DNA of 64,000 nucleotides, from contig CAXXYH010000003.1 of assembly GCA_963677925.2 (NCBI GenBank), positions 64,001-128,000 on the forward strand, written 5' to 3'. Positions 47,548 through 64,000 of the stretch are shown one piece after another. Each line of letters opens with the position of its first letter. Within the stretch, counting starts at the first letter, position 1. The stretch comes from Spirochaetia bacterium. Its GTDB lineage: Bacteria; Spirochaetota; Spirochaetia; UBA9216. A model generated the notes under the pieces. The model worked only from the letters and a program-made list of their open reading frames with translations, was not told where the DNA came from and did no database searches. Both the position numbers and the translations under genes were made by a program.

Positions 47548-47587
47548 GCTTTTCTTTATCAGACCGCACGACGGAGTCAAGGTCTGA

Positions 47588-48469
47588 TTATATATTACTC
47601 TTAATAATGATTGTGGTACCAACTCCACCTTCTTTATAAATATTTCCTAAATTTTCTTTAAAATATTCTATTCCTACATCTCCAGTGCTATGCATAGGAT
47701 ATAAACATCTTAAAGGTATCTCCTGAAATTTCTTCTTTGTATATACCAATAATCTTTCATTTGCTTGATGTAATTGTAAGCCTCCAATAATAAAACTTAT
47801 ATTATTATCACTCTTTTTTATGATATGATTTATTGTATTCACTATTCCTGAATGACAACATCCACATATTACAATTTTACTATTATCTTCAAGTTCAATA
47901 ACTAATGAAATATCATCATCCAATTGATCCTGTTCTTCAATTCCATTCTCTCTTTTTATTACTTTTTTTAACATTGGATTTAAAATCTCATAATCATTTT
48001 TTCTTGGGATTTCTCCTGTTATCCAAATATTATCAGTTATTCTATATTCATCTTTTCTCTTAATTATTCTGCCACTTTGTTCAATTCTTTCTATTTCTTT
48101 AGTATCTTGTATCCCAACATTTTTTTCAGTACCATCTTCCAATATTAATATTTTTTCTATTAACGTATCAGGATGGCAAACAACTCTAACATAGTCATTT
48201 GAATTCGTAAAAGCATATGATAATCCACCGGTATGATCAAAATGTCCATGACTTAAAACTATATAATCAATATCGCTTATATCTAACTTTAATTTTTGTA
48301 GATTTATTTTCAATCTTTCATTTTCTGGGCCAGTATCAAATAGTATTTTTATAATAGTTCCATCATCTAATTCATTCTCAACTAATGCTGAAAATCCTCC
48401 AGGAGCATATTCGTCTCCAACAATTGATTTATTATCAACTATTACCGTGATTTTAACCTGTTTTACCAT
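47588..48469 (-). CDS. Cassette: MBL-fold metallo-hydrolase
   Basis: LFDTG, SHGHFDHTGG, CGCCHSG. Confidence 0.88.
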   Translation of the reverse strand: MVKQVKITVIVDNKSIVGDEYAPGGFSALVENELDDGTIIKILFDTGPENERLKINLQKLKLDISDIDYIVLSHGHFDHTGGLSYAFTNSNDYVRVVCHPDTLIEKILILEDGTEKNVGIQDTKEIERIEQSGRIIKRKDEYRITDNIWITGEIPRKNDYEILNPMLKKVIKRENGIEEQDQLDDDISLVIELEDNSKIVICGCCHSGIVNTINHIIKKSDNNISFIIGGLQLHQANERLLVYTKKKFQEIPLRCLYPMHSTGDVGIEYFKENLGNIYKEGGVGTTIIIKSNI

Positions 48470-48619
48470 TTACAATATTTCCCTTATCTATTATCGAGAG
48501 TATAAACACTGATACAATCCTATAGCCCGTCGGCCGGAGGTCCGGGCTATTTCTTCATTCTTATACTAAACCCAATATACAAAATCGACTAACATTTTTA
48601 TGATTTATACTTTAAGTGC

Positions 48620-48756
48620 ATTTAACGACCAAATAAGTAGCGAAACCGGCTGAGGTCTTCCGAAGCTTGGCGCGGTTTCTGAGCGAGGAGCATTCGACGA
48701 GCGTCTCCGCAGAAACCGTGTCAAAGGTTTTGACTACTTCATTTGATTTGTTATCA
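48620..48756 (-). repeat. attC family A
   Basis: atttaac...gttatca. Confidence 0.9.
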
Positions 48757-48783
48757 AGAGCAATTTTCTTCATTTCTCGAATT

Positions 48784-49221
48784 CTATTTTTCCCATTCCA
48801 TTATGAATTCTATTTCTCCAGTATCTTTATCTATTGAGTCTGATATTATTTCAAATTTTTTATTCCTATAGAATCTTATACTTTTCTCATTCTTTTTATA
48901 TACTCTTAATTCTATTCTTTCTCGTTTTTCTTTTACGAAGTTTAATAATTGACTACCAATCCCCATACCTTGTATTTCTGTTAGTACAAAAATTGCTGCA
49001 AGATATTCATTTATCATTGATACGAACCCCAAAAGCTTTTTATCATTTTGGGCGATATAGGTTTCTGACTTTGGGATATATTCTTCTTTCATCATTGATT
49101 TATTCCTTTCCCAATATTCATCTGAAATAAAACTATGAGTTTCTATTGATACCTTATACCAAAGTTCAACAATATCATCTATATCTTCATGACTTGCTTT
49201 CGTTATCCTTACATTTTCCAA
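48784..49221 (-). CDS. Cassette: GNAT acetyltransferase (YjaB-like)
   Basis: THSFI, QGMGIGSQLL, NEKSIRFY. Confidence 0.88.
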   Translation of the reverse strand: MENVRITKASHEDIDDIVELWYKVSIETHSFISDEYWERNKSMMKEEYIPKSETYIAQNDKKLLGFVSMINEYLAAIFVLTEIQGMGIGSQLLNFVKEKRERIELRVYKKNEKSIRFYRNKKFEIISDSIDKDTGEIEFIMEWEK

Positions 49222-49342
49222 TAATTTACCTTTTAATATCGACGCAGTCTCTATTCCCAGCCCTAATGTTCGCTTCCACTGGGGTTTTTACTTTCAGTTC
49301 CGCTTCCATTGGGATTTTTCTTAATTATCTCTTTCCTTTTCT

Positions 49343-49588
49343 TTATGATACCTTCCACTTAATATCCAATTTAAGATGTTTTCTAGCGCAATCTGCCAAA
49401 TACAAATTGATCAATTGCTGATATTTTATTCCAGATTCCTCTGACATATCCTTAAAATAATCTATTGTATCTTCATCTAAGCGGATAGTTATCTGTTTCT
49501 TTAATTTCGATACATACGGATTCTTTTTTGCATTTGAAAAATCATAATGTTCTCTCATAATTTCATCCTCCATATTCCCTTGTTTCAT
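49343..49588 (-). CDS. brnA: BrnA-like antitoxin (true start probably MREHYDF)
   Basis: KKQITIRLD...YFK...YQQLINLYL. Confidence 0.85.
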   Translation of the reverse strand: MKQGNMEDEIMREHYDFSNAKKNPYVSKLKKQITIRLDEDTIDYFKDMSEESGIKYQQLINLYLADCARKHLKLDIKWKVS

Positions 49589-49847
49589 CCTTATCAGCTT
49601 TCCTTGCTGATATAATCCTTATTATTTCGTCATTTTCCCTATAACAATGACACACCACCAATACTTTTAAAGTTTGTGATAATCCCATAATCAAGAATCT
49701 TTCTTCATCTTCAGAATGATCCGGATCATGTATTATTAAAGCAGCTGGATCATAGAACACTGTTTTTGCTTCATCAAAGCTTACCTTATGTTTCTTTTTA
49801 TTGATATTATTCTTATTTTCATCCCATTCGAACTGGATATTTTTCAT
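49563..49847 (-). CDS. brnT: BrnT family toxin
   Basis: FEWDENKN..N..KH.VSF, IRIISARKA; start placed at MKNIQ behind the promoter. Confidence 0.88.
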   Translation of the reverse strand: MKNIQFEWDENKNNINKKKHKVSFDEAKTVFYDPAALIIHDPDHSEDEERFLIMGLSQTLKVLVVCHCYRENDEIIRIISARKADKDETREYGG

Positions 49848-49853
49848 ACTTAT

Positions 49854-49882
49854 AATGTACATACATTGTAGTGTTTTGTCAA
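49854..49882 (-). promoter_or_regulatory. sigma70-like promoter of brnTA (leaderless)
   Basis: TTGACA-17-TACATT, ATG 6 nt downstream. Confidence 0.7.
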
Positions 49883-50032
49883 TTTTTATATTTCATAATA
49901 ATCCCAGCCCTAACGCTCGCTTCCACTGGGGTTCTCTCACCGTTTCGCTTCCGCTGGCAGCTGAATTTCGTTCCCATATGGGTTTAAACTACAACAATTA
50001 TTTCATCAAATTTACACTGCGTTATTGGTTCT

Positions 50033-50178
50033 TGATAACGACGAAATAAGTTGCGCCCTCGATCCTGAGCCGAAGGCGAAGGAATTGGCGTGATTCTGGA
50101 GTGGAGCGCGATCAGCGTGGAACGTCTCCGCCAGAATCATGACAATAGACGGCGACAACTTCATTTCATTTGTTATAC
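50033..50178 (-). repeat. attC family A
   Basis: tgataac...gttatac. Confidence 0.9.
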
Positions 50179-50185
50179 GGATTTT

Positions 50186-50476
50186 CTATACTTTTTCCAA
50201 TAATTTCCCAGATACATATTTATGCAATATCATTGAAACCAGGGTTTGATATGGTAATCCTTCTTCCATTGCTTTTATCTTCAAATTCTTCAAATCTCTT
50301 TCTGATATTCTTATATTCATCCTTTTATCTTTTTTCATCGTAGCTTCAGCATATTTTTTTGCTTGAAGCCTATATTCTTCATTTTCTTCTATTTCTTCCC
50401 ATTCACCTTTCTCAAGTGAATTTATTAAATCGCGTTCTTCTTCATCTATCGGAGTAAACATATTTTCCTCTTTCAT
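50186..50476 (-). CDS. Cassette: CopG/RHH-type antitoxin
   Basis: KDKRMNIRISERDL..K.KA.EEGLPYQTL. Confidence 0.85.
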   Translation of the reverse strand: MKEENMFTPIDEEERDLINSLEKGEWEEIEENEEYRLQAKKYAEATMKKDKRMNIRISERDLKNLKIKAMEEGLPYQTLVSMILHKYVSGKLLEKV

Positions 50477-50760
50477 TCCTTTCCTCCATTCTTCAATAAT
50501 TTCTTCGTATATTCCCTACTCGGGTATATTGTCTTTAGAAATATCTCTTCACCTTCTTTATTTTCAACAAAAGGCACTATATATATATAATCATTATAGT
50601 TGATTAGATAAATTTTCTGATTTCCATATTTTTCTTCATTTGGATGCCTTAAGACTTTTACAACTTTTCCTTCAGAAATACACAATATAATTTCTTCAAA
50701 TGACATGTTTCGTTGTTCCTTCAGTATTTCATTCTTTTCATCATTCCAATTATATGTCAT
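50473..50760 (-). CDS. Cassette: BrnT-like toxin
   Basis: YNWNDEKN..LK..R..SFEEI, FLKTIYPSR. Confidence 0.85.
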   Translation of the reverse strand: MTYNWNDEKNEILKEQRNMSFEEIILCISEGKVVKVLRHPNEEKYGNQKIYLINYNDYIYIVPFVENKEGEEIFLKTIYPSREYTKKLLKNGGKE

Positions 50761-50766
50761 ATTATA

Positions 50767-50795
50767 AAGATAAGCTCACGTGTGCCTTTTGTCAA
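50767..50795 (-). promoter_or_regulatory. sigma70-like promoter of the TA cassette (leaderless)
   Basis: TTGACA-17-TATCTT, ATG 6 nt downstream. Confidence 0.65.
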
Positions 50796-50896
50796 TACTT
50801 TATATTTCTTAATTTTTTACGGAGTCTCGATTTAACCACAAATGGCCCACTAAACTATGAAATCTATCAATATTATTTTATCTAATTCTTAATTCC

Positions 50897-51034
50897 GTAT
50901 AACGACGATTTGAGTAGCAAAACCGGCCGAGTCAGCGAGGCTTGGCGCAGTTCTGGAACGTAGCGCGATCAGCGCGGAGTGTCTCCGCCAGAACTGTGAC
51001 AAAGGTTTTGACTACTCCAAATCTCTTGTTATGT
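50897..51034 (-). repeat. attC family A
   Basis: gtataac...gttatgt. Confidence 0.9.
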
Positions 51035-51598
51035 TTCAGTATCTCTATCTATTAAAGCTCTAATATTCTCTCGATTCTTTAATCTATTAATTTCTTTATA
51101 AAAAAATCTTAATGATTGTTCATTGAAAATGTCATGCATATATTCAAAAGCATCCTTAATTTCAGATGTTAATTCCATTATATCGACACTATCGTATTTT
51201 CTTATCATTTTATGAGCAAGTAAATTTCTTGTTGCATTTAGTTTCTTGCTTAATATTAATATATCTTCTTTACCTTCAAATTGAAAAGAATCTTTAATAT
51301 AACTGATTATATTGCCAATAGGGATATCTAAATTATGTTCTTTTATTTTCTTTGGATATGCCTTACATTTTTCAATTAAATCTATATACAATAATACCAA
51401 TTTTAAAATTTCTTTTTGCAATTGATTATAAATAAATACTGATGCTATTCTTCCTTCAATTGTATTTTGTTCAAACATTTGTGATGCTTTTTTATTTAAT
51501 TTCACATGTGGTTCAATATTCTCTATCCAGAGACGATTAGGAGTATCAATTAAATCTAGTTTCAATATTTCTTCATATTCCATATATTCTATCTCCAA
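51029..51598 (-). CDS. Cassette: hypothetical protein, HEPN-like RNLLAH
   Basis: RxxxxH motif. Confidence 0.6.
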   Translation of the reverse strand: MEIEYMEYEEILKLDLIDTPNRLWIENIEPHVKLNKKASQMFEQNTIEGRIASVFIYNQLQKEILKLVLLYIDLIEKCKAYPKKIKEHNLDIPIGNIISYIKDSFQFEGKEDILILSKKLNATRNLLAHKMIRKYDSVDIMELTSEIKDAFEYMHDIFNEQSLRFFYKEINRLKNRENIRALIDRDTET

Positions 51599-52434
51599 AA
51601 TCTATGATCGTATCTATAAATATTTTTCATATTTTCATAGTCAAATTGAAAAAAACCTCTATCATGAAAATCATATATCTCTTTTTCTACTTTAATACTT
51701 TCTATAATCTCAATTTTATCATTTTCAAAAGATTCAAAACAGGTATAGTCATCTAAAATAATTTCCGAGTCAATTTGAATCTTAAAATATCTAGAAATTG
51801 CTTTTCTATACATATATATTTTGTCATATGACGTAACCGCTTCTATAGGGACTCTACATTTTAAAATGTATGGAACACCATTATTCCTTAAAAATCTCCT
51901 ACAAATTTCTGGATTTAAACTAGTTACAATACCTAATAGCGTTTCACTCCCATATATTAAATAATGACATGAACCATCATGGTCAAAGCAATGAATATTA
52001 GAGCAAAAATTCAAGTTCATATCATTAATTCGGTTAGTATTGTTCTCTATTGCCTTCTGTATCTCTTCATCAGCAAATCCATCAAACATGGTTTTACATA
52101 TATATTCATAATCACTTTTTCTTAATATTTTTAAACTGGTAAAACCACCTTGAAATAGTTTAGTTGCATGATATCCGTAAATATTATTTAATGAATTTTC
52201 TATTAATTCAATTTGTATATCATTATCATAGAATTTATAATCAATCAAATAGCCGTCTATAATTTCTTCAATTACTGAATAGAAATCTAATCCACTTTGG
52301 TAAGGATCTATTTTCAATATCTCTTCTCTTACATAATCAAGAAGATACTTATTTATATGTTCTTCGAGCAAATTGATATATACTTCTTTATCATCTAAAT
52401 CAATAACATCATACATATTTATTATATTTCTCAC
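51589..52434 (-). CDS. Cassette: hypothetical protein (YHAT motif, ART-like fold possible)
   Basis: GYHATK, YGSE. Confidence 0.6.
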   Translation of the reverse strand: MRNIINMYDVIDLDDKEVYINLLEEHINKYLLDYVREEILKIDPYQSGLDFYSVIEEIIDGYLIDYKFYDNDIQIELIENSLNNIYGYHATKLFQGGFTSLKILRKSDYEYICKTMFDGFADEEIQKAIENNTNRINDMNLNFCSNIHCFDHDGSCHYLIYGSETLLGIVTSLNPEICRRFLRNNGVPYILKCRVPIEAVTSYDKIYMYRKAISRYFKIQIDSEIILDDYTCFESFENDKIEIIESIKVEKEIYDFHDRGFFQFDYENMKNIYRYDHRFWR

Positions 52435-52462
52435 TCATTTTATTCCAATTTTTCTTCTGTAA

Positions 52463-52601
52463 ACATAACGACGATTTGAGTAGCGAAACCGGCCGAGTCT
52501 TCGAGGCTTGGCGTAGTTCTGGAACGTAGCGCGATCAGCGCGGAGTGTCTTTAGCCAGAACTATGACAAAGGTTTTGACTACTCCAAATCTCTTGTTATC
52601 T
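52463..52601 (-). repeat. attC family A
   Basis: acataac...gttatct. Confidence 0.9.
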
Positions 52602-53241
52602 ATATTATTTTTCTTATCAAAATTCCTCGTTCTGCAAAATATTTTTTAAATAGTTCCAATTGTATTTTGTAATTTTGTTGAGTTCTTATTTCATCTCCTG
52701 AAGGATTATTAATATAAATAGTATTGTTCAAATTATCGACACCTGATACAACAACAAGATGACCACCTTTTTCCCCATTATATGTCATATCCGGTTTACG
52801 GATTAAATAATGTACCGACACAATAAATATATTGCCATCTAATGTTGCATTAAATATCTCATCTGTGTTTAAAGGTGAAACAGAGTTTGCATCTAACTGA
52901 AAACTATCCTTTAAATATTCACAAAACGGTACATAAAATAATCCATCAATACTTTCCTTATTAACTTTAGATCCACCATATTCAGTACATTCTTTTGCTA
53001 ATTGGATTATAGGTGGTGAATCAATCTTCCAGTATTCTAAAATCATTTTCAAACATGCCATTCCGCAAATGTTTTTAGCCCATAATTCATATTCTTTAAC
53101 ATTATTTGCTCCAGAATATTCCCATAAAGGATCATTTGTTGCTTGGATTTTACCAGATATAATTTCTCCTACTATCTCACGAGACATCCATTGTGAATAA
53201 TAAGGCATTTCATTAAGTATAATTTTTTGACTATTAACCAT
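52600..53241 (-). CDS. Cassette: C39-like cysteine peptidase (copy 1)
   Basis: PYYSQ, CGMACLKM, GHLVVVSG, INNP. Confidence 0.8.
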   Translation of the reverse strand: MVNSQKIILNEMPYYSQWMSREIVGEIISGKIQATNDPLWEYSGANNVKEYELWAKNICGMACLKMILEYWKIDSPPIIQLAKECTEYGGSKVNKESIDGLFYVPFCEYLKDSFQLDANSVSPLNTDEIFNATLDGNIFIVSVHYLIRKPDMTYNGEKGGHLVVVSGVDNLNNTIYINNPSGDEIRTQQNYKIQLELFKKYFAERGILIRKII

Positions 53242-53771
53242 TTTCCCAACTTAAAATTTGATAGACAATAATATAGAGCTTTATTCCCAATTTTTTTGGG
53301 TTAATTCTATCACCTAACATAATCATTTACATTTATTCAATAGCTTAGTGCTTTTGTATATTCATATTCTTCTTATTTACCTCATAATACGGTAAAATCT
53401 ATTCAAAGACATTAGATCTATTTCCGAATGTTCAGACCGAGCCTTATATACAAATTTCTAATAACCACATGTACAGAAATTCTTGTATTTTTTCATTTTA
53501 AAGCTGTTTTCAGACTATTGGAACTATATTTTATTAATTATTCTATATTGTTCTTTTGGATATAGGCAATTGTTAAGTAAGTCTTTAGCTGATAAATACT
53601 TAATGATTTTAAATGCAATTGAAAATCATTAATTTCCTTTATTCTTATAATTCTTATAGGCTTAAGATTTTAATAACAAACTGCTTTTTTAAAGAATTCT
53701 AATTGTATTAAGCTTGTACACTAATTCATTAGAAATTTGATGACAGAGTTATCCGCCTGTACCCGAATTAT

Positions 53772-53909
53772 AGATAACGACGATTTGAGTAGCGAAACCG
53801 GCCGAGTCTTCGAGGCTTGGCGCAGTTCTGGAACGCAGCGCGATCAGCGCGGAGTGTCTCTGCCAGAACTGTGACAAAGGTTTTGACTACTCCAAATCTC
53901 TTGTTAAAT
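53772..53909 (-). repeat. attC family A
   Basis: agataac...gttaaat. Confidence 0.9.
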
Positions 53910-53988
53910 GCCTTATTATCCAGACCGTACGGCGGAGCCAGGTCTGGATTTCTTCATTATTATTTTTTTGATATTAATAAAGTTTTTA

Positions 53989-55152
53989 TTAAACCTCTTG
54001 TATTAATTCATTTTTATAGAAATTTTTTAAACTTTCTTCATATGCTAAATATGGTCTTTTTATAGATTCGGTTGATAATTTTATTAATTCTGATAACCAA
54101 ATAATTAGATCAACTAATGCATTTTCAATTCTAAATTTATCTATTTCAAAATGTAACCCTTTATTAAATAAGTCTAAAAGACGATCAGCTTCATCCCCAA
54201 GTTCAGTTAATTTATTTGTTTCTTTTATATTATTTTCTTCAATTGTTTTTTCAATATATGCCCATATTCTATTTTTAAACTTATCATTTCCAACATCTCT
54301 CCCTTTCCATTTTTCTTTTTGTGCAGGGAAAAGGTAATTTGCAATTTTTTCTAAAAATCTTCTTCCAGATATTGCAACTTGAGCAAAATCATCCTCTGTT
54401 TCAGCATTTTTAAATACTCTTGCAGCAGAAGCTAAAGTTTCAAAAATCTTTGGATGAAGCTCTTCAATAAAAAAGCTGACGTCTGATGCAATTTCATCAT
54501 TTAATCCATTTAACTTAGAAAAAATATCTTTAAATTCTTCAACTCTTTTAAAATGTTCTAAACTATCATAATTATCAAAAATTGTTCTTCTTGCGCCTAT
54601 ATCTTCATAATTAACAATAAATCCATTTTTTTCGAAACAATTCTTTATGGAGATATCGGGATCTTCATTATCATTCATATGGTAAAAGATTGAGCATTTA
54701 TTTGAAATTAATCCATATTCTTCACATAATGAATTCCTAAATAATGCCAAATGTGGGCCATAATTAAAAATAACATCCATAGCTCCAAGATAAGTTTTAT
54801 CATCTCGTAAAATTACATCAATGTTAGAAGCAATTTCATATGTCATATTTTGAAAAACCCAACAAAAAACTGTTGCAGTTGTAAATGTACTTTCCAACTC
54901 TGTTTCTTTAAGCTTATTATATTTATGAGGTCTATAAACTTTTCTACAAACTTCTTCCAGATGAGCATAAGTTCTATTCTGACTTTGAGAAACAATTCCA
55001 TAAGTTAAAACGTCTCCTATCGAAAGCCTCATATGTCTCTTTGTATTTTGTAAAATGTTAGTTCTAAGTATTTTATTCATTATCGGAATACCATAAAATC
55101 CATCATACTCTTCATGATCTGAATTAAATAGAAAAGCAATATTCATACACAT
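53989..55152 (-). CDS. Cassette: hypothetical protein with HEPN/Abi-like C-terminus
   Basis: SGRRFLE...NRIWAY...NKGLH. Confidence 0.65.
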   Translation of the reverse strand: MCMNIAFLFNSDHEEYDGFYGIPIMNKILRTNILQNTKRHMRLSIGDVLTYGIVSQSQNRTYAHLEEVCRKVYRPHKYNKLKETELESTFTTATVFCWVFQNMTYEIASNIDVILRDDKTYLGAMDVIFNYGPHLALFRNSLCEEYGLISNKCSIFYHMNDNEDPDISIKNCFEKNGFIVNYEDIGARRTIFDNYDSLEHFKRVEEFKDIFSKLNGLNDEIASDVSFFIEELHPKIFETLASAARVFKNAETEDDFAQVAISGRRFLEKIANYLFPAQKEKWKGRDVGNDKFKNRIWAYIEKTIEENNIKETNKLTELGDEADRLLDLFNKGLHFEIDKFRIENALVDLIIWLSELIKLSTESIKRPYLAYEESLKNFYKNELIQEV

Positions 55153-55294
55153 CCCTTCGTCATAATTTTTTAATAAGAGTTAATTACTCCCCACAATCGC
55201 CCGTCGGCCGGAGGTCCGGGCGATTTCTTATTCCTTATATTACCCCCTAAAACGATTATCAGCTAATATTTTTATTATTACATTCTCTAAGTGC

Positions 55295-55434
55295 ATTTAA
55301 CGACGTTTTGAGCTGCCTGGCGGCGCGAGTCTTCGCGCGCATTGGCGTGATTCTGGAGTGCAGCGCGATCAGCGCGGAACGTCTATGCCAGAATCATGAC
55401 AATAGCCAGGACTGCTCCAAAACTTTTGTTAAAT
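55295..55434 (-). repeat. attC family A
   Basis: atttaac...gttaaat. Confidence 0.9.
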
Positions 55435-55520
55435 GCTATACCCAAACAACCCAATCCATAAAATAAAAATGTGGCGCAGCCCGAAGCCCGAATGGGCTGA
55501 GCATATAGCCCCTGTTATAG
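55435..55520 (-). repeat. Right half of split family-B att site
   Basis: aaaataaaaatgtggcgcagccc...catatagcccct gttatag. Confidence 0.8.
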
Positions 55521-55619
55521 GAAGTATTTTGGCTCTTGAGTCAGACCGTACATCGGAGATAGGGCTGGCCTCTTAAACATACAACTTTCAACTTTAACAG
55601 TATCCTAAAACAAACTTTG

Positions 55620-56747
55620 TCAATTAAAAGCATACTTCACTAAAGCTATTTCATTCTCACTATCACTACCTTTTTCAAATAAAAATAAGTTATCTCCAGT
55701 TTGAAGTTTTCTTACAACTTCGATGTCTTTCAAATCCTCATCAATAGTCCCAATCCATCTTGGACTATTTAACTCTCTTATATCATAAACAAAATAATTC
55801 CCGATTAAAATATTATTAAAATCAAAATCTAAATCAAAATAACTAAACAAGTTTATTTCATCTGTTGAATTACATTTTTGTAGAAATTCATATTTTTTTT
55901 CACTATCTAATTTTATTATGCTCCAAAAATACTCTTCTGAATTTAAACCTCTTGCTCCATCACTTACTATAATATCATTATATATATTAAATCCATTGTC
56001 CTCTAAACTGATAGAATTTATATCGACCAATTCATAATTATTAGAAATATTAGTAATATCATAAACAATCATTTGATTTGTTATTGTAAAAGGATTACCA
56101 TCTTTATCAACTTTAAGCTCACTTGAAAAAGTGTATAAATAATTTGAATTTAAGTAAATTTCTTTATCAATTACTCCTTCGAAAGAATCTAAATAATGTC
56201 TTTCAATTTCTAGCATATTATCAGCATCCAAAATTAATAATAGTTTATAGTATGAAAATGAATTAGAATCTAAAATATAAATTTTATTATCCATACATCT
56301 TAAACTTAAATAATAGGTAGTGTTTAAATTATAGGTATTATTTTCACTAATAGAATATTTAAAAGATGGATTTGTTATATCCTCAATCAAATATACCAGA
56401 CAATCCGTTGACCCTAGAAGATACAAATAATTTTCATAAATATACAATTGTTTAAAATCAGGAACAATATCATTATAATAATTTGAATTATCAACCCAAG
56501 GGATGGTGGAAACTTCAATCAATCCTTCCAAATCTATCAAGTGCACCATCCCATCAGTACTATAATATACTAAAACTTTAGAAGTCTCAGATATAAACGC
56601 AGAGAATGAATCTGCTTTTTCATCTAAAATAAGTTTTGTATCTTTAGAAAATATTTGATTGAAATGGTATCCATTTTGATAATATGGAAAAAAGTTTTTA
56701 CATGAGGTTATTCCTAATAATAATAAAAATAATAAAATCCTTTTCAA
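55620..56747 (-). CDS. Cassette: lipoprotein, probable beta-propeller
   Basis: Lipobox-like LLGITSC; repeated YDI-type strands. Confidence 0.7.
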   Translation of the reverse strand: MKRILLFLLLLGITSCKNFFPYYQNGYHFNQIFSKDTKLILDEKADSFSAFISETSKVLVYYSTDGMVHLIDLEGLIEVSTIPWVDNSNYYNDIVPDFKQLYIYENYLYLLGSTDCLVYLIEDITNPSFKYSISENNTYNLNTTYYLSLRCMDNKIYILDSNSFSYYKLLLILDADNMLEIERHYLDSFEGVIDKEIYLNSNYLYTFSSELKVDKDGNPFTITNQMIVYDITNISNNYELVDINSISLEDNGFNIYNDIIVSDGARGLNSEEYFWSIIKLDSEKKYEFLQKCNSTDEINLFSYFDLDFDFNNILIGNYFVYDIRELNSPRWIGTIDEDLKDIEVVRKLQTGDNLFLFEKGSDSENEIALVKYAFN

Positions 56748-56860
56748 TACGTTTCATTCCTTATATATTGACATAATATATCAATTTTAAATTTTATTCT
56801 TTTTTTCTTATTGCCCGTCGGCCGGAGGTCCGGGCGTCTTTCTCTTAGCCAAAATATTTC

Positions 56861-56954
56861 CTATAACGTCCCGGGGTTATATGACGTTTTTATTTTTTAA
56901 TTTTACCACCAATTACCCGTATTTACCATTTCAAACTGTTTTACCATGTTGTGC
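56861..56954 (-). repeat. Left half of split family-B att site plus linker
   Basis: ctataac gtcccggggttatatgacgtttttatttt. Confidence 0.8.
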
Positions 56955-57092
56955 ATTTAACGACGATTTGAGTAGCAAAATCGGCCGAGTCTTCGAGGCT
57001 TGGCGCAGTTCTGGAACGTAGCGCGATCAGCGCGGAGTGTCTCTGCCAGAACTGTGACAAAGATTTTGACTACTCCAAATCTTTTGTTATAT
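56955..57092 (-). repeat. attC family A
   Basis: atttaac...gttatat. Confidence 0.9.
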
Positions 57093-57106
57093 GGGATTTC
57101 CATTAT

Positions 57107-57601
57107 TTATGGATAAAAATTATGTTCTGGGTCTACAAATACGACATAAAAAGTATTCTTATCAAATGCTTTTCCAGTTTTACAATGGATTTTCCCATTA
57201 TATTCATCTGGAACTACAAAACCAATAAGCCTTTTATCATATTCTAAACGGAATCTACCCCATAGTACTTGATGTGGAATATATGAAGGATGTTTTAATT
57301 TTGAATGCTTTGGAAATGCACCATAATTTACATAAATACTGTTTCGGTGCTTCCCACTTCCAATTTTCATATTTTCCCAATGCTCTAAATTTTCTCTACT
57401 ATACTCAATTAATTTCTTAAATATTTTATTACTATCATCCTTCTGCATATTCTTTATATCTTCACATAAAGACTGAGAGCTATCAAAATAGCTGAAATTA
57501 AATTTCATTCTATTGGATAGAGTATCGGTTTCAGAATCAAGACTAGCTTGTGGAAAAGAATTAATAAACGAATCTTTTTTACTATTCTGAAAATTTTTCA
57601 T
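57107..57601 (-). CDS. Cassette: hypothetical protein, partner of the ATPase (RelE-like fold possible)
   Basis: RFRL...RLIGF...FYVVFVDPEH; ATGA overlap. Confidence 0.65.
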   Translation of the reverse strand: MKNFQNSKKDSFINSFPQASLDSETDTLSNRMKFNFSYFDSSQSLCEDIKNMQKDDSNKIFKKLIEYSRENLEHWENMKIGSGKHRNSIYVNYGAFPKHSKLKHPSYIPHQVLWGRFRLEYDKRLIGFVVPDEYNGKIHCKTGKAFDKNTFYVVFVDPEHNFYP

Positions 57602-58734
57602 ATTTTAGGGACTCCCCCTAATTTACCACTAAAATAAATATTTGAAATTTGTCGATCATTCCTTACAATATCGCCAGGTAGCTCATCTAATCTATAAGCA
57701 AAACTACAATTTTTTTCTTTATTTACCAGAATTGTTTTGTATTTCCCAAGTTCGTCCATTATTTTATTATTATGTGTTGTAAAAATTAATTGAGCATCCT
57801 TTTGATTTGCTTCTTCATCAAATAACTTAATTAGTTTTGGTAAAATTAATGGATGGAGATTTATATCAAATTCATCCAGAACTAAAACTCCTCCCACATC
57901 CAAAATTGCTTTATATAAAAATAAAGTTGAATACAATGCTTTAGTTCCACTTGATTCATAATGTATTGTTAATGCTTCGACTCTATCCTCTAAATCATGA
58001 TAAAAAATAGGAAAATAACTTTTATCACCATTATCTAAATCGCGATCGAATATTTTTATATCATTAATTCCTACATCACATTTTTTTATTTGTTCAATTG
58101 CAAAAGTAAAAGCTTTTTCATTTTGTAAATATAATTCTGAGATCTTACTAATATCAGGGTTGAATCCATGATAACCAAAATTATTTACATTAGTTACAAT
58201 GTTTTTAAAAAATGAATACACATTATTGATTGATTTGAAATCATATTGATGTGCAGTACTTATAAACGAGGCATTATTTCTTAACTTCATCATTTTGATT
58301 TCATCATAATCTTTATTCGTGTATATAATTTCATTATATTTTCTTTCTACTATTTTAGTATTTCTTTTAATTTTCTTATATAAGACTTCTGAAATAACGT
58401 TTTGTTGTGTTGTCTCTAGCTCGTATCTATACTCGATATCATCAATCTTGAAAACAATATAAAAATCGGTTGGGTCCTTACTTTCAAAAAATGATTCTAA
58501 CATTATTTCATCGTCAGGTTTCATTCGAAATGAATCAATACAAAAATTCCTTATGAAATCTATAGTTTTTAATATATTTGTTTTTCCACTTGCGTTTCCA
58601 CCTTTTACACATATTACATTTGTAAATTCCTTTCCATGAGATATGCTTTCTGGACAATTATTATTCAAACGCAATGAAGCTTCAAAACCTTCTTTAAAAG
58701 AAAAGTAATTCCTAGCACCAAATTCTAATAACAT
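57598..58734 (-). CDS. Cassette: AAA_21/AbiEii-type ATPase
   Basis: GGNASGKT, ESSGT, LDEFDINLHP, QLIFTTH. Confidence 0.88.
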   Translation of the reverse strand: MLLEFGARNYFSFKEGFEASLRLNNNCPESISHGKEFTNVICVKGGNASGKTNILKTIDFIRNFCIDSFRMKPDDEIMLESFFESKDPTDFYIVFKIDDIEYRYELETTQQNVISEVLYKKIKRNTKIVERKYNEIIYTNKDYDEIKMMKLRNNASFISTAHQYDFKSINNVYSFFKNIVTNVNNFGYHGFNPDISKISELYLQNEKAFTFAIEQIKKCDVGINDIKIFDRDLDNGDKSYFPIFYHDLEDRVEALTIHYESSGTKALYSTLFLYKAILDVGGVLVLDEFDINLHPLILPKLIKLFDEEANQKDAQLIFTTHNNKIMDELGKYKTILVNKEKNCSFAYRLDELPGDIVRNDRQISNIYFSGKLGGVPKI

Positions 58735-58850
58735 ATCGATCTCCTATAGGATTCTACTAATAATATCGTCTAAATCCTTAAAAAGTCAACTCTTATTAGC
58801 TTTTTTTGTCATTTTTGACTAATTATGCCTGTTATAATCCAATATTCTCC

Positions 58851-58991
58851 ATATAACGACGATTTGAGTAGCGAAACCGTGCCGAGTCTTCGAGGCTTGG
58901 CGCGATTCTGGAGTGGAGGCACGATCAGTGCCGCAACGTCCCTGCCAGAACCGTGACAATGGTTTTGACTACTCCAAAACTTTTGTTATAC
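58851..58991 (-). repeat. attC family A
   Basis: atataac...gttatac. Confidence 0.9.
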
Positions 58992-59001
58992 ATTTTTTAT
59001 T

Positions 59002-59856
59002 TCAATCATGTTTTTCTATTTCTTTTTGTTCTTTTGAATAAATAGTTTTAGCCATTCCTTTAACCATAGTTTCAGAAATAAAAATAATTTGTCCTTTTTT
59101 ATTTTTATAATAATCAGAGGATAATCTTTTATAATAACCTCTACGAAAGTGAGGGGACACAACTTTACCAGAAGAAGAGTTATTGACAGGTTCTACTATT
59201 TTATCGGCAATTTCTAATATGAAAGATTTTTCCTTTATTTCCTCCTTAATATAAGGAGGAACTCCTTCCTTAACACATTCAGGAAATGCTTCCATATATG
59301 CAATAGTGTTAATTGCAAGTCGAAAGATTCGGCAAATTTCATTGGAATTTCGTGAATCTTCCTTTAATAATTCTTTATAATTTTTCTCTGAGCACCAGGC
59401 ACCTCCTTTGCCTATAGCCCAATATAGAATAATTTGATTCTGTTCATTATTCATTAATCCAAATGCATAACCCTTATACTTATTTTCATATGGAATATGT
59501 AATCCAAATGGAAAAATACGTAATTTTAAATTACCTTGTTCTTCAATCATTCCATTCTCATTAATATATTTTCCAATACCTTCGAGATCTGCTAATTGAA
59601 TATTTTCAAGAAAATTTCTTAAGTTTTTATCAATGAAGTATAGGTGTAACATTTTATTAATAGCATCTGTATACCATAAATCCCACGTAAACTTTTTTAA
59701 TTGCTGCTTTTGCCAAGATTGAAAAGGATTATTCATTATTTGTTGATTAATGCGTATTAAAAACTGTTCAATTGTATCTTTATTATTTTTGTAATTTTCT
59801 AAGTAGTTATCCCATTGAGTCGCTAAAGGTTTACTATACCAAGGTTTCTTTCCCAT
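59002..59856 (-). CDS. Cassette: hypothetical protein with C-terminal PHFRRGY motif
   Basis: ORF; SPHFRRGY...FISETMV. Confidence 0.7.
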   Translation of the reverse strand: MGKKPWYSKPLATQWDNYLENYKNNKDTIEQFLIRINQQIMNNPFQSWQKQQLKKFTWDLWYTDAINKMLHLYFIDKNLRNFLENIQLADLEGIGKYINENGMIEEQGNLKLRIFPFGLHIPYENKYKGYAFGLMNNEQNQIILYWAIGKGGAWCSEKNYKELLKEDSRNSNEICRIFRLAINTIAYMEAFPECVKEGVPPYIKEEIKEKSFILEIADKIVEPVNNSSSGKVVSPHFRRGYYKRLSSDYYKNKKGQIIFISETMVKGMAKTIYSKEQKEIEKHD

Positions 59857-59859
59857 ATT

Positions 59860-60246
59860 CTAAAATAGTGGCATTATAAATTGTTCATCTTTATTAAAAG
59901 ACCACTGAACTTGCCACGTTGAACCTGTAATTTGATCTAAAAGGATAAAATTCCACATATTACTAGTATAATATAGTGTAAATCTTCCATCTATCTTTTT
60001 TTTATTTTCTGCCAGATTCTTATCATTTAAAATTACTCCACCTCTTTCATTATCTTCTACAGAATATTGTAAAATCCACATTTTTCCCGTAGCAGTCTCT
60101 AGTTCAATAAATGTCCAAATATTTTGTGTTTTAAAGAGTCGATAAGGAGCATTAGGATCTTGAGTTGATTCTATAACCTGAGTTTGTGCTATTAATCCTG
60201 TAGATATAATAAAAAAGACAACTAAAAATATCATAACTTTCTTCAT
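59860..60246 (-). CDS. Cassette: secreted hypothetical protein with internal duplication
   Basis: Signal peptide MKKVMIF; repeated T.N.W.FI.L...TG..W unit; GGAGG SD. Confidence 0.75.
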   Translation of the reverse strand: MKKVMIFLVVFFIISTGLIAQTQVIESTQDPNAPYRLFKTQNIWTFIELETATGKMWILQYSVEDNERGGVILNDKNLAENKKKIDGRFTLYYTSNMWNFILLDQITGSTWQVQWSFNKDEQFIMPLF

Positions 60247-60283
60247 AATATCCTCCAAAACTATTTAACCCTTCTTAGAATAT

Positions 60284-60419
60284 GTATAACGACGATTTGA
60301 GTAGCAAAATTGATCCGCGTCTTCGCGGAATTGGCGCGATTCTGGAGTGAGCGATCAGCGAACGTCTTTAGCCAGAATCGTGACAATAAATTTTGACTAC
60401 TCCAAATCTCTTGTTAAAT
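60284..60419 (-). repeat. attC family A
   Basis: gtataac...gttaaat. Confidence 0.9.
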
Positions 60420-60508
60420 GCTTTTGCCCAACTTACCCAATTCATAAAATAAAAATGTGGCGTAGCCCAAGGAGCGCTTAGCGACGAAGCAAATAACCCC
60501 TGTTATAC
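60420..60508 (-). repeat. Right half of split family-B att site
   Basis: aaaataaaaatgtggcgtagccc...aataacccct gttatac. Confidence 0.8.
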
Positions 60509-60603
60509 GCTTTGAGCTTGACATACAGACCGTTCAACGGAGTTAGGTCTGGATTCTTTATCTAATATAGTAAAATTTTTATCGGAATAATTAATATTAT
60601 ACT

Positions 60604-61638
60604 CTAATCAACCCAAGCAGGTACTTCAGGAGCAAAATCTATTTTATTAGTTACTAACCGATATGCTAATGCCTCTCCTTCATGTTTTATATCAATAGAT
60701 GTTATTTCACATTTGAAAATATGTTGATATTTCTCAGTTAGAACTTCATACGCTTGTTGATTCAGGAGAGTATTAGAAGCTTCTGTATTTGACATTCGAC
60801 AAGCATATACTACAGGGACTCCAACAACAGTGTACTCATTATTTATGATATTCAACGAAACCTCTCCATAATCAATCCCAATGCCTAATCCTATATTATT
60901 TAAAATAACGTTAAAACATGATTTTGATTGATCATAAACTTTATTAAATTCTTCATGACATTCAATTGAACTTTTTAAAGCATAAAACAGAGCATCTTTT
61001 CCTGAATAAAAATCAGGAAAAAATGCAAGAATCCCATCGCCAGTAAATTTATCAAATATACCATAATTTTTTTGTATTATTTTAATTATTCCTTTTATTA
61101 GCTCATTTATAAATTCAGAGAATTTATCTGGGGTTCTTGACTTTAACATTAATTCTGTAGATCTTCTAATATCCAATGAAAACACAACAGCATTTGATTT
61201 TCTCACTTCCTCAAATTGCTTTCTAAATTTTTCATCATTTAGTAATTTGGTTTGAGCTGCTTCATTAATCCTATGATAAATGTATCTTAATTTATATTTA
61301 TTCTGAAGTTCTTCGAATTTATCCTTTAGCACTTTTGTTTCATCTCTTGGATTTTTATTAAAAGTACCAAGTTTTTTTGCCATATCTGCTATTTCATCAA
61401 AAGTGCTAAAATAGTTTTCAAATTTTATGGATTTTAATGTTTCGTCTAATTGATCCAACACATCAAAAGCTATTGATTTAATATTTCTATCAGAAAAATC
61501 TTTTAGAGCCTCAGCTAATTCTTTTATTTTTTCTTCTTCTAAATAACTTTTTGTTAAAATAGCATCTACTTTTGAAATATTATTTTTAGATTCTCTTAAT
61601 GCTTTTCCTGACTCTTCTTTTGCATCATCAAAATTCAA
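60604..61638 (-). CDS. Cassette: class III adenylate/guanylate-type nucleotide cyclase
   Basis: SLDIRRST, DKFTGDG, IGIDYG, GVPVVYACRM. Confidence 0.85.
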   Translation of the reverse strand: MNFDDAKEESGKALRESKNNISKVDAILTKSYLEEEKIKELAEALKDFSDRNIKSIAFDVLDQLDETLKSIKFENYFSTFDEIADMAKKLGTFNKNPRDETKVLKDKFEELQNKYKLRYIYHRINEAAQTKLLNDEKFRKQFEEVRKSNAVVFSLDIRRSTELMLKSRTPDKFSEFINELIKGIIKIIQKNYGIFDKFTGDGILAFFPDFYSGKDALFYALKSSIECHEEFNKVYDQSKSCFNVILNNIGLGIGIDYGEVSLNIINNEYTVVGVPVVYACRMSNTEASNTLLNQQAYEVLTEKYQHIFKCEITSIDIKHEGEALAYRLVTNKIDFAPEVPAWVD

Positions 61639-61739
61639 TATTACACCTCCAACTTTTTTATATCTAAAAATAAAAACTAAATATTAACTCGCCCGTCGGC
61701 CGGAGGTCCGGGCGTCTTATTCTTGTCAAGCTCATTGCG

Positions 61740-61830
61740 TAATAACGTTCCGGGGTTATGTGACGTACGGCGAAGCCGTATGTGGCGCAGCCCGAGGAGC
61801 GTAGTGACGAGCGAATAACCCTTGTTAGAC
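61740..61830 (-). repeat. Intact family-B attC-like site
   Basis: taataac gttccggggttat gtgacgtacggcGAAgccgtatgtggc...ataaccctt gttagac. Confidence 0.8.
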
Positions 61831-61879
61831 GATGTCACGAACCTTCTTCAAAGCCAAGCAACATGGATGTTGTTTGGCT

Positions 61880-62209
61880 TTAATCTATTAACATTTCCTG
61901 TAGCACATTCTTGACGAGATCTACTTCTTTTCTATTTATTTTACCAATCTTTTTAATTAATCTCTTCCTATCAACAGTTCTTAATTGATCTAAAACAATC
62001 CATCCATCTTTATTTTGAAACTTAACAGCTACACGAGTAGGATATGTATGTGATTTTGTTGTCATTGGAGCGATAATAATAGTCTGGATTGTTTCATTCA
62101 TTTCATTTGGTGAAATCACTAAACAAGGTCTTGTCTTTTTTATTTCATGGCCAACTGTTGGATCTAAGTTTATTAAATATACCTCATATTGATGAATTAC
62201 CATTCCCAT
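61880..62209 (-). CDS. mazF: PemK/MazF toxin
   Basis: NLDPTVGHEIKKTRPCLVIS, APMTT, DQLRTVD. Confidence 0.9.
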   Translation of the reverse strand: MGMVIHQYEVYLINLDPTVGHEIKKTRPCLVISPNEMNETIQTIIIAPMTTKSHTYPTRVAVKFQNKDGWIVLDQLRTVDRKRLIKKIGKINRKEVDLVKNVLQEMLID

Positions 62210-62445
62210 TCAAAATCACCCTGTTCAGTCAAATTGTCTAAAAGTAATGAATCATCCCCATTTTGATGCATCTTCATAAACTCTTCGGACCATCCTTCCC
62301 TTGGCTTTTTCTTTATTGGTCTAATCAGTATTTCTGTATTATGCACTTCTAATTCAACTTTTTCTTCAATATTTAACTGTTGCAAAATGCTCTTCGGAAT
62401 TCGTATTCCTTTTGAATTGCCTATAGGAACCACTGAAACTAACAT
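62197..62445 (-). CDS. mazE: AbrB/MazE antitoxin
   Basis: IGNSKGIRIPK; start MLVSV behind GAGG SD. Confidence 0.88.
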   Translation of the reverse strand: MLVSVVPIGNSKGIRIPKSILQQLNIEEKVELEVHNTEILIRPIKKKPREGWSEEFMKMHQNGDDSLLLDNLTEQGDFEWEW

Positions 62446-62460
62446 AATACACCTCTTTAT

Positions 62461-62493
62461 TGTAATTATATAGTAATTACATAAATTTGTCAA
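62461..62493 (-). promoter_or_regulatory. Consensus promoter with overlapping operator palindrome for mazEF
   Basis: TTGACA-17-TATAAT; tgtaattatatagtaattaca inverted repeat. Confidence 0.8.
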
Positions 62494-62546
62494 TCTTTGC
62501 TTGCCAAGGATGGCAAGCATCCTCTTTCTCTTAGGTTCGTGATTTC

Positions 62547-62642
62547 GTCTAACGCCCCGGGGTTATATGACGTTTTTATTTTTCTCAATTTTACCACCAA
62601 TTACCCGTATTTACCATTTCAAACTGTTTTACCATGTTGTGC
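62547..62642 (-). repeat. Left half of split family-B att site plus linker
   Basis: gtctaac gccccggggttatatgacgtttttatttt. Confidence 0.8.
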
Positions 62643-62781
62643 ATTTAACGACGATTTGAGTAGCGAAACCGGCCGAGTCTTCGAGGCTTGGCGTAGTTCT
62701 GGAACGTAGCGCGATCAGCGCGGAGTGTCTTTAGCCAGAACTATGACAAAGGTTTTGACTACTCCAAATCTCTTGTTATCT
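62643..62781 (-). repeat. attC family A
   Basis: atttaac...gttatct; appears identical to 52463-52601 internally. Confidence 0.9.
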
Positions 62782-62784
62782 ATA

Positions 62785-63438
62785 TTATTTTTCTTTATTT
62801 ATTAATTTTCTTATCAAAATTCCTCGTTCTGCAAAATATTTTTTAAATAGTTCCAATTGTATTTTGTAATTTTGTTGAGTTCTTATTTTATCTCCTGAAG
62901 GATTATTAATATAAATAGTATTGTTCAAATTATCGACACCTGATACAACAACAAGATGACCACCTTTTTCCCCATTATATGTCATATCCGGTTTACGGAT
63001 TAAATAATGTACCGACACAATAAATATATTGCCATCTAATGTTGCATTAAATATCTCATCTGTGTTTAAAGGTGAAACAGAGTTTGCATCTAACTGAAAT
63101 CTATCCTTTAAATATTCACAAAACGGTACATAAAATAATCCATCAATACTTTCCTTATTAACTTTATATCCACCATATTCAGTACATTCTTTTGCTAATT
63201 GGATTATAGGTGGTGAATCAATCTTCCAGTATTCTAAAATCATTTTCAAACATGCCATTCCGCAAATGTTTTTAGCCCATAATTCATATTCTTTAACATT
63301 ATTTGCTCCAGAATATTCCCATAAAGGATCATCTGTTGCTTGGATTTTACCAGATATAATTTCTCCTACTATCTCACGAGACATCCATTGTGAATAATAA
63401 GGCATTTCATTAAGTATAATTTTTTGACTATTAACCAT
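62785..63438 (-). CDS. Cassette: C39-like cysteine peptidase (copy 2)
   Basis: Near-identical to 52600-53241. Confidence 0.8.
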   Translation of the reverse strand: MVNSQKIILNEMPYYSQWMSREIVGEIISGKIQATDDPLWEYSGANNVKEYELWAKNICGMACLKMILEYWKIDSPPIIQLAKECTEYGGYKVNKESIDGLFYVPFCEYLKDRFQLDANSVSPLNTDEIFNATLDGNIFIVSVHYLIRKPDMTYNGEKGGHLVVVSGVDNLNNTIYINNPSGDKIRTQQNYKIQLELFKKYFAERGILIRKLINKEK

Positions 63439-63968
63439 TTTCCCAACTTAAAATTTGATAGACAATAATATAGAGCTTTATTCCCAATTTTTTTGGGTTA
63501 ATTCTATCACCTAACATAATCATTTACATTTATTCAATAGCTTAGTGCTTTTGTATATTCATATTCTTCTTATTTACCTCATAATACGGTAAAATCTATT
63601 CAAAGACATTAGATCTATTTCCGAATGTTCAGACCGAGCCTTATATACAAATTTCTAATAACCACATGTACAGAAATTCTTGTATTTTTTCATTTTAAAG
63701 CTGTTTTCAGACTATTGGAACTATATTTTATTAATTATTCTATATTGTTCTTTTGGATATAGGCAATTGTTAAGTAAGTCTTTAGCTGATAAATACTTAA
63801 TGATTTTAAATGCAATTGAAAATCATTAATTTCCTTTATTCTTATAATTCTTATAGGCTTAAGATTTTAATAACAAACTGCTTTTTTAAAGAATTCTAAT
63901 TGTATTAAGCTTGTACACTAATTCATTAGAAATTTGATGACAGAGTTATCCGCCTGTACCCGAATTAT

Positions 63969-64000
63969 AGATAACATATTAGATCCCAAGTTTTCTATAT
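63969..64000 (-). other. Probable attI junction (start of array)
   Basis: Core agataac is followed by atattagatccc..., not by any attC sequence seen here; truncated by window end. Confidence 0.5.

Follow-up and report, generated by a model that had tools for sequence, protein, structure and literature searches.

The genome of a Spirochaetia bacterium (GenBank assembly GCA_963677925.2; 5.04 Mb in 4 contigs, two of them >2 Mb, 99.6% complete) was found to hold one gene cassette twice, in two forms that are circular permutations of each other. One copy lies in the window, i.e., the whole stretch of 64,000 nt that was analyzed (positions 64,001 to 128,000 of contig CAXXYH010000003.1, hereafter C3:64001-128000), where the cassette carries a gene for a predicted lipoprotein and forms part of the array of a canonical integron with its integrase, IntI, and its recombination sites, which we call attC A or simply A. 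The other copy lies on a second contig, C4, in an array built on a different family of structured sites, termed B, which starts beside a XerA-like tyrosine recombinase. The two forms are related through a nested double site, B[A], in which a complete attC A occupies the loop of a B site. We think it likely that such a dual-site cassette was opened at its inner site, with IntI acting on A, the XerA-like enzyme acting on B, and cassettes being transferred between the two platforms.

One cassette in two circularly permuted forms

The nested site is seen intact on C4. The B array there (C4:1140787-1157969) contains 14 arm-paired sites, four of which are composites of 327-331 nt holding an attC A: the terminal hairpin of B is replaced by a long linker, a complete attC A, and a short linker. 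Upon folding a 337-nt composite, we obtained a structure with the B boxes outermost, a 13-bp A/T stem formed by the linker ends, and the attC inside (-63.4 kcal/mol, z -5.6). In the window cassettes, the same linkers connect each half of a B site to an attC A.

The two copies of the lipoprotein cassette align at 98.5% identity over 1452 nt (window 55440-56890 versus C4:1149237-1147787), with the C4 gene lying between an upstream B site and a downstream composite B[A]. The C4 cassette spans 1663 nt, from the TT that follows the upstream B core up to the G in its own composite. Once opened at the crossover of A, G^TT (the caret marks the point of exchange), it matched window 56960 to 55301 (1660 nt) in one high-scoring segment pair of 1664 columns at 98.0% identity. 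Without this permutation, the alignment split into two pieces. The recombinant joint is located within the core GGGACGTTAT: At the B core, the arm of the window copy is that of the composite itself, without a difference between the A/T stem and GTTAT (L box included), after which the cassette start follows, while the arm of the upstream C4 B site differs at 3 positions from that of the window copy. The C4 lipoprotein gene shows a 1-nt deletion in a T run (C4:1147931-1148824, locus L007; corresponding to window 55893), which leaves an open reading frame of 297 instead of 375 aa and may be a true frameshift or a homopolymer error.

A sequence-only reading of the window had described the lipoprotein gene as enclosed by three layers, namely a pair of hairpins, then split B cores, and then A cores, and had proposed that these were assembled stepwise around the gene. 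All three motif pairs are present, with small corrections. The B cores GTTATAGG and CCTATAAC are complementary as described, but the second one begins at 56860, not at 56861, and the complementarity extends to 21 nt (inverted repeat I1, 95% complementary, the best inverted repeat in the lipoprotein cassette). The A cores GTTAAATGC and GCATTTAAC are present, yet they do not set this cassette apart, as complementarity to the own core was found in 30/30 cassettes of the array (see below). As for the hairpins, the 5'-side one (HP5) stood up to scrutiny, whereas the one at 55541-55570 turned out to be a decayed member of a second family (HP3), and both are direct copies on one strand rather than an inverted pair. 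Two different site families do exist, B is indeed split in the lipoprotein cassette, the B-bounded unit is real and occurs elsewhere, and the claim of a second nesting instance with a near-identical linker was borne out (window 62523-62636 is 88.6% identical to 56837-56948).

The proposed order of assembly fared differently. It holds that a gene first gained hairpins, then B ends, and then A ends, such that the layers record the order of acquisition, and a search for copies with fewer layers had been suggested. The same genome did yield such copies: The lipoprotein unit is B-bounded on C4, and of a MazEF unit (window 61742-62573), C4 has a 99.8% identical copy flanked by a plain B site on either side, with neither A nor hairpins, so that a B-bounded unit without A exists, as do hairpin-flanked genes with A alone (e.g., window 53915-55289). 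The B-bounded copy of the lipoprotein cassette, however, already has A inside the loop of B in place of the terminal hairpin, and the nesting runs opposite to what had been thought, with A lying within the B site and not B within A. Because the window copy is a circular permutation of the C4 copy at the G^TT of A, aligning as a single segment, the layers were not added stepwise. Moreover, A cores belong to all cassettes, the fixed distance of the hairpins to sites and their variable distance to genes fit better with parts of an extended site than with a first wrapping of the gene, and no recombination step is known that puts half a site on each end of a cassette. Successive wrapping is thereby left as a highly improbable account.

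The permutation could also be imagined as an artifact or a product of decay, arising from an assembly mix of two 98%-identical copies or from homologous recombination between repeats with no site-specific step. The copies do share 1.45 kb at 98.5%, the arrays are rich in repeats, and the short-read contigs of a public sequencing run break there, the junctions listed for these contigs deriving from other repeat copies. Against this stands an assembly of only 4 contigs, with two >2 Mb, and contigs of run X1 (which may be the assembly's own data) bridge both attC A, linker, B arm, and gene (55402-56791) and B arm, linker, and attC A (56868-56980). In addition, the joint falls exactly in the core GGGACGTTAT, three further split-B cassettes are present in the genome, and diverged nested sites recur in another genus. 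We give such an artifact hardly any weight.

Nested B[A] sites were found in two other genomes, namely once in G001 and twice in G007, which belongs to another genus. The G007 sites have a covaried L box (GGGAATATAAG / CTTATATTCCC) and other linkers but the same T-rich and A-rich linker ends. Since the nesting recurs in both genomes, in G007 with covaried L boxes, it is maintained and not a one-off accident. Within the window, the dual-site cassette at 60425-62636 contains two B cassettes, one with a 344-aa gene flanked by HP5 and HP3 and the other with MazE/MazF (61880-62520), separated by an intact B site (61738-61832). The coordinates of all parts are collected in Table 1.

Table 1. Features of the integron array and parts of the lipoprotein cassette (window coordinates)
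Feature	Position	Strand	Remarks
Cassette array of the canonical integron	19472..63975	-	31 attC A sites; attI junction 63975^63976
Third dual-site A cassette	42415..43623	-	Split B arms 42445-42495 and 43532-43557
attC A of the lipoprotein cassette itself	55293..55436	-	Plus-strand GCATTTAAC at 55293-55301 and GTTAAATGC at 55428-55436; plus is the folding bottom strand
Short linker, attC A to B arm	55437..55468	-	Its terminal AAAATAAAAA pairs with TTTTTATTTT in the long linker
B arm with core GTTATAGG (55514-55521)	55469..55521	-	3' arm on the plus (bottom) strand; R''-L'' half after the gene on the gene strand
Left half of the 21-nt inverted repeat; extends the B core with cassette-specific sequence	55514..55534	.	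Repeat I1
Decayed 3'-side hairpin, family HP3	55541..55570	+	Stem CCAGACC/GGTCTGG, loop with CGGAG; by comparison with family copies
Cargo gene, predicted lipoprotein, 375 aa	55620..56747	-	Open reading frame
5'-side hairpin HP5, GCCCGTCGGCCGGAGGTCCGGGC	56813..56835	+	One of 15 near-identical genomic copies
Right half of the 21-nt inverted repeat; contains B core CCTATAAC (56860-56867)	56847..56867	.	Repeat I1
Other B arm	56860..56887	-	5' arm on the plus (bottom) strand; L'-R' half at the cassette start on the gene strand
Long linker, B arm to upstream attC A	56888..56952	-	92.5% to the C4 composite linker; 88.6% to the linker at 62523-62636
attC A of the upstream cassette	56953..57094	-	nhmmer match 56949-57098, E 7e-50; folds as canonical attC
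Second dual-site A cassette, two B cassettes inside	60425..62636	-	Split B arms 60455-60509 and 62547-62573
intI	64199-65458 (C3:128199-129458)	+	Outside the window, past its right end; divergent from the cassettes

Site families and the neighboring recombinases

The array in the window is an integron by all elements of the definition: an IntI with its specific insertion, a divergent intI gene, an attI junction, folded attC sites, and self-complementary cassette starts. A profile built from 16 copies of attC A (nhmmer) revealed 31 sites of ~145 nt in the window, in a single orientation throughout, and 43 genome-wide (39 on C3 and 4 on C4), and the genes of the array are almost all on the minus strand. 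The integrase matched TIGR02249 with 382.9 bits (cut-off 265; C3:128526-129455, ~500 nt past the window end), and the IntI-specific insertion was visible in the alignment. This IntI is 419 aa long, with an N-terminal extension of ~105 residues that has no Pfam match.

The attC A at 56949-57098 folds as a textbook attC, with -34.6 kcal/mol on the bottom (plus) strand versus -26.4 kcal/mol on the top (minus) strand, a two-sided spacer, and single-base bulges confined to one arm (the 3' arm). As the bottom-strand fold is the more stable one, the plus strand is taken as the recombining bottom strand, with the genes on the top strand. Upon comparing cassette starts with cores, we found that the first 9 nt after the crossover G were complementary at 9/9 positions to the cassette's own attC core in 30/30 cassettes, compared to 23/245 pairings of starts with cores other than their own. 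The A cores are ordinary cassette boundaries, part of the normal anatomy of every integron cassette. For the lipoprotein cassette, the G^TT crossover in the plus-strand GCATTTAAC at 56953-56961 marks the start of the cassette, and its own attC A (nhmmer match 55289-55439, E 3e-41) resembles the A of the C4 composite at 97% (by inspection). Rfam gave no match across the whole window at gathering thresholds, and relaxing the limit to E 5 gave none in 53700-57200. At window 34217-38129, four variants of attC A with lengths of 201-207 nt have one of their branches extended by ~55 nt (repeat families D14, D17).

For B, a profile was built from nine intact sites, and the halves in the window were matched by nhmmer. 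Sites with both arms intact comprise one in the window, 61738-61832, plus the array on C4. On the bottom strand, the ~95-nt consensus folds into two boxes, R with 5 bp (TAACG/TGTTA) and L with 11 bp, set apart by a bulge of 4 nt that is confined to the 5' arm. A terminal hairpin of 9 bp and a small hairpin at the side complete the fold, and in plain intact sites the tip is the hairpin TACGGCGAAGCCGTA. The bottom-strand fold includes four G.U pairs, because of which only this strand of B folds well. A covariance model retrieved 54 copies among the loci examined, and their alignment showed compensatory changes in 22/31 base pairs. In this alignment, 94.1% of cells were paired compared to at most 50.5% with slid partners, and 0/500 shuffles reached the observed value, although the alignment was fitted to the model, which favors structure. 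Helix 1 (TAACG/TGTTA, with the R box TAAC/GTTA) is near invariant, with 96.9% paired, while the terminal hairpin covaries in 7/9 pairs.

B resembles attC in its paired AAC/GTT cores at the cassette boundaries, in its strand-biased folding, and in its variable terminal structure; the terminal structures of integron attC sites likewise vary widely in size. It has, however, no two-sided unpaired central spacer and no extrahelical bases, the L box being an uninterrupted 11 bp, and B is a distinct structured family. In the lipoprotein cassette, the B profile matched 55469-55521 with its positions 43-97 (E 6e-7; the intact counterpart is C4:1149155-1149207) and 56861-56887 with its positions 3-29 (E 6e-4). 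The ends of the two linkers form a further inverted repeat (I11, 55460-55472 / 56884-56896), and homologues of the short linker follow window 42414 and 60424. A number of B sites are longer, with 181-183 nt, as a ~100-nt insert with T-rich and A-rich ends replaces the terminal hairpin (C4:1147636-1147818; in G001, locus L029, 3004-3185, 9433-9613, 15602-15784, and 17761-17942). This filling of the B loop is a third kind and could be another nested element.

The B array on C4 begins 66 nt past the stop codon of a 357-aa tyrosine recombinase in the same orientation. The best family for this protein was XerA (model NF040815, 232.5 bits, cut-off 220), whereas the match to TIGR02249 reached 194 bits in two stretches, below the cut-off of 265. 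Its closest solved relatives are XerA structures 4A8E and 5HXY, ahead of IntI4 (2A3V). It is 30% identical to the IntI of the same genome, with gaps of 31 and 8 residues opposite the IntI insertion. Judged from this alignment, the protein lacks the IntI-specific insertion and would not classify as an IntI. The IntI insertion contacts the extrahelical bases. At its N terminus, the C4 recombinase has ~80 extra residues that are HARP-like at 22.3 bits (cut-off 25), and the HARP domain was matched by 8/15 members of the XerA-like family (best E 4e-8). HARP domains bind junctions of single- and double-stranded DNA.

A comparison with G001, a genome of the same genus, pointed to the entry site of this platform. 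The two genomes are syntenic (94% at the nucleotide level) up to ...TTCTGAG^TT, 66 nt past the recombinase stop, beyond which they carry different cassettes, and a related motif was seen in G004 and G007. From these sequences, the junction after the XerA-like gene appears to behave as an attI, i.e., as the putative primary entry site of the C4 platform. The first cassette after the XerA-like gene on C4 encodes a Shedu-type protein (SduA_C, 48 bits) with HP5/HP3 flanks (C4:1139266-1140735; L007 1266-2732).

Distribution among genomes and proposed transfer between platforms

We searched 61 genomes for B sites, A sites, the XerA-like gene, and IntI. Full-length XerA-like homologues of 50-58% identity were found in three families of the class, one of them that of the present genome, and in 7 genomes from 3 families B sites lie downstream of such a homologue and are co-oriented with it. 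The B profile matched 24 times downstream of the gene in G001, 7 times in G007, 3 times in G004, and once each in G006 and G056, and one B site lies there in G012; in three other genomes, the contig ends at most 300 nt from the gene. B sites were present in 11/20 genomes with a XerA-like match compared to 2/41 without one, and in 0/7 genomes that have IntI but no XerA-like match, while A sites were present in 12/21 genomes with IntI compared to 6/40 without; as the related genomes are kin and many are incomplete, these counts overstate the support and are to be read as a pattern, not as a test. On the array side of intI, 20 kb of sequence held 13 A sites in G001 and 12 in G007 but no B site.

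These data bear on a simpler explanation, in which a single integrase serves all sites: B would be a second attC class used by IntI, the C4 array would be integrase-less, the XerA-like gene would be an unrelated neighbor, and the nested sites would be by-products. In its favor, A and B both fold from the bottom strand and have a common TAAC/GTTA core, and IntI occurs in 7/9 genomes with a close XerA-like homologue. This explanation fits poorly with a XerA-like gene that immediately precedes B sites, in the same orientation, in 7 genomes from 3 families, with a junction 66 nt past its stop that carries different first cassettes in two congeneric genomes, and with the A-only arrays beside intI in G001 and G007. 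Furthermore, neither the two-sided spacer nor the single extrahelical bases of canonical attC are found in B, and B sites exist in 5 genomes where no intact IntI was found. On balance, a single integrase for both site families seems unlikely to us.

The site of a dual-site cassette is a nested double site, with the B stem outside and the terminal hairpin swapped for two linkers and a canonical attC A, both parts folding from the bottom strand. Under the preferred reading, the cassette could, as a circle, be opened at either crossover point. If opened at the G^TT of B, it would come to lie in the C4 B array beside the XerA-like recombinase with the double site intact; if opened at the G^TT of A, it would come to lie in the IntI array of the window with the B arms at the inner ends of the cassette, where they would look like a split site enclosed by A cores. 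IntI would recombine A and the XerA-like enzyme would recombine B, such that dual-site cassettes could pass between the platforms, with a cassette excised as a circle from the B array and then inserted through its inner site into the A array, or moved in the reverse direction. What the sequences show is the anatomy and fold of the site, the covariation in B, the permuted relation of the two copies with the joint in GGGACGTTAT, and the conserved linkage between each recombinase gene and its class of sites; the assignment of each enzyme to its site and the transfer via an excised circle are what we infer.

Several points weigh against this reading, which does not account for the origin of A in the loop of B. 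The co-occurrence of IntI with the XerA-like gene in most genomes with B arrays (7/9, as above) and the core that A and B have in common make it conceivable that one enzyme acts on both site classes. The phyletic pattern is also untidy: G032 has 2 B and 10 A sites, with neither recombinase found, G016 has 1 B site and no XerA-like match, and in genus g13 the B arrays are divergent from a Xer-like gene that bears an in-frame TAG. Lastly, the window and C4 copies agree at only 92.5% in their long linkers, compared to 98.5% in the remainder. Because of this linker and of the 1-nt deletion in the C4 gene, the present C4 copy is not the direct parent of the window copy.

A broader form of the proposal is, in our estimate, about as probable as its negation. 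Here, this spirochaete family would have two coupled platforms, one an IntI/attC integron and the other an IntI-independent, integron-like platform, between which B[A] cassettes act as adaptors. The XerA-type recombinase of the latter would have a HARP-like domain that may bind single-/double-stranded DNA junctions, its sites would be another folded structure devoid of extrahelical bases, and HP5/HP3 would be accessory arms read by the N-terminal domain.

Divergent B arrays beside a Xer-like gene with an in-frame TAG, matching only residues 83-357, were located in another genus at G018:C2:561403-571231 and G054:C1:2494519-2505757. Among the matches listed, more distant XerA-like homologues (30-41% identity) in other phyla had no downstream repeat family at 4/7 loci and weak repeat families of 2-3 copies at the remaining 3/7. 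Two Flavobacteriaceae loci (L057, Winogradskyella, 13574-15851; L063, 12050-20943) show 2-3 spaced repeats of 43-57 nt downstream of homologues with 34-35% identity, which might represent an array of this kind, albeit a very different one.

Hairpins, known systems, and further observations

The genome contains 15 copies of HP5 and, by strict pattern, 12 of HP3, none of them outside the two arrays. Across three genera, HP5 does not vary (27 copies among the loci examined), while the HP3 stem is kept via compensatory variants (CCCAACC/GGTTGGG, CCAGTCC/GGACTGG, TCAAGCC/GGCTTGA). Both lie on the same strand, have a CGGAG loop motif in common, and precede a tract rich in T and C on the bottom strand, and all window cassettes with HP5 also have HP3 (7/7). 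The copy at 55541-55570 no longer folds better than chance (z -0.16; 74/200 shuffles fold equally well). The strand on which the hairpins fold cannot be read from G.T or A.C pairs, as such information is absent among true family members. Immediately following attC cores, we noted hairpins of a second class, which have the loop ACACGGATG and stems that covary (window 24963-24986; L029 8640-8665; L031).

The position of the hairpins follows the sites. HP5 ends 32-34 nt before the end of the TAAC of B in 8/8 cases, and HP3 begins 8-10 nt after an A core or ~22 nt after a B core, compared to a hairpin-to-gene distance that varies from ~0 to 66 nt. Because the distance is fixed to the sites and variable to the genes, we read the hairpins as parts of an extended site. 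In plain B sites, the stem is lengthened by mutual pairing of the stretches that separate hairpin and core on either side. Our guess is that the hairpins are accessory parts, or arms, of this extended site; they may instead serve other roles, such as marks of RNA ends or insulators. We discarded two further candidates. The hairpin pair as the ends of an IS200/IS605-type element would fit the like orientation of the hairpins, but the Y1 transposase (PF01797) had 0 matches genome-wide. A role as promoter or terminator signals found no support, with 21 promoter-like matches in the window region versus 19 expected and no hairpin called as a terminator.

When compared with known systems, the window array resembles the sedentary chromosomal integrons, such as the arrays of Vibrio and Treponema, in its IntI with insertion, divergent intI, attI, 31 folded attC sites, and typical cargo, but differs in that some of its cassettes carry a second site family around attC. 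The C4 recombinase is Xer-type, and gene modules bounded by Xer sites are known from Xer/dif systems and the pdif modules of Acinetobacter plasmids. A dif or pdif site is short (~28 bp) and double-stranded and has two binding arms, whereas B is a strand-specific fold of ~95 nt with covarying stems, arranged head-to-tail as in an integron, and the HARP-like N-terminal domain of the recombinase comes in addition.

According to Cury et al. 2016, IntI differs from other tyrosine recombinases by a domain of ~35 residues, and 50 recombinases without this domain adjoin attC sites, all of which were judged not to be IntI; in 29 cases, the genome has an IntI at another place. The C4 array would be scored in line with the clusters of attC sites lacking integron-integrases (CALIN) and the non-IntI recombinases near attC described there, as it has no adjacent IntI, a PF00589 neighbor without the IntI region, and an IntI elsewhere in the genome. 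Unlike those cases as they are presented there, the C4 neighbor is conserved with the array in 3 families, has an entry junction with variable first cassettes, and adjoins sites of non-canonical architecture. The spirochaete system covered by Cury et al. 2016 (see also Wu et al. 2013) likewise has recombinase and cassettes pointing the same way, but the integrases of that system are described as true IntI, whereas the C4 protein falls below the TIGR02249 cut-off and has no insertion. In the literature searched, we found no nested attC and no Xer-type cassette platform; supplements such as the tyrosine recombinase tree of Cury et al., which may bear on whether the XerA-like family was among the 29 cases mentioned above, lie outside this search. 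The passages of Ghaly et al. 2021 and Weinberg et al. 2017 that were consulted contain no description of nested sites or of a Xer-type platform.

What defines an integron is a single enzyme family, IntI, with a special domain by which the extrahelical bases of the folded attC are read. If a Xer-type enzyme indeed serves a cassette array, cassette capture on folded single strands would have evolved, or would persist, outside IntI, and arrays now scored as integrase-less may have recombinases that go unrecognized. The nested site would provide a concrete and testable route for cassettes between platforms of different specificity, and the two permuted copies in one genome would be a rare natural record of the excision of a circle followed by its re-entry at the other crossover point. 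Orthogonal recombination tools could, moreover, be modeled on nested structure-specific sites.

The lipoprotein matched 0 families in Pfam and 0 in NCBIfam. The cargo of the array is typical of integrons, with toxin-antitoxin and defence genes, and includes an AAA_21 AbiEii-like ATPase at 57598-58734. A cassette with a C39-like peptidase is duplicated at 99% (window 52603-52902 and 62800-63099), one of the copies being the first after attI. A separate group of 8 attC A sites (C3:51614-60518, locus L008) lies 23 kb to the left of the main array, from which it is parted by ordinary genes, and includes one split-B cassette, with arms near C3:53456 and 54121-54163.

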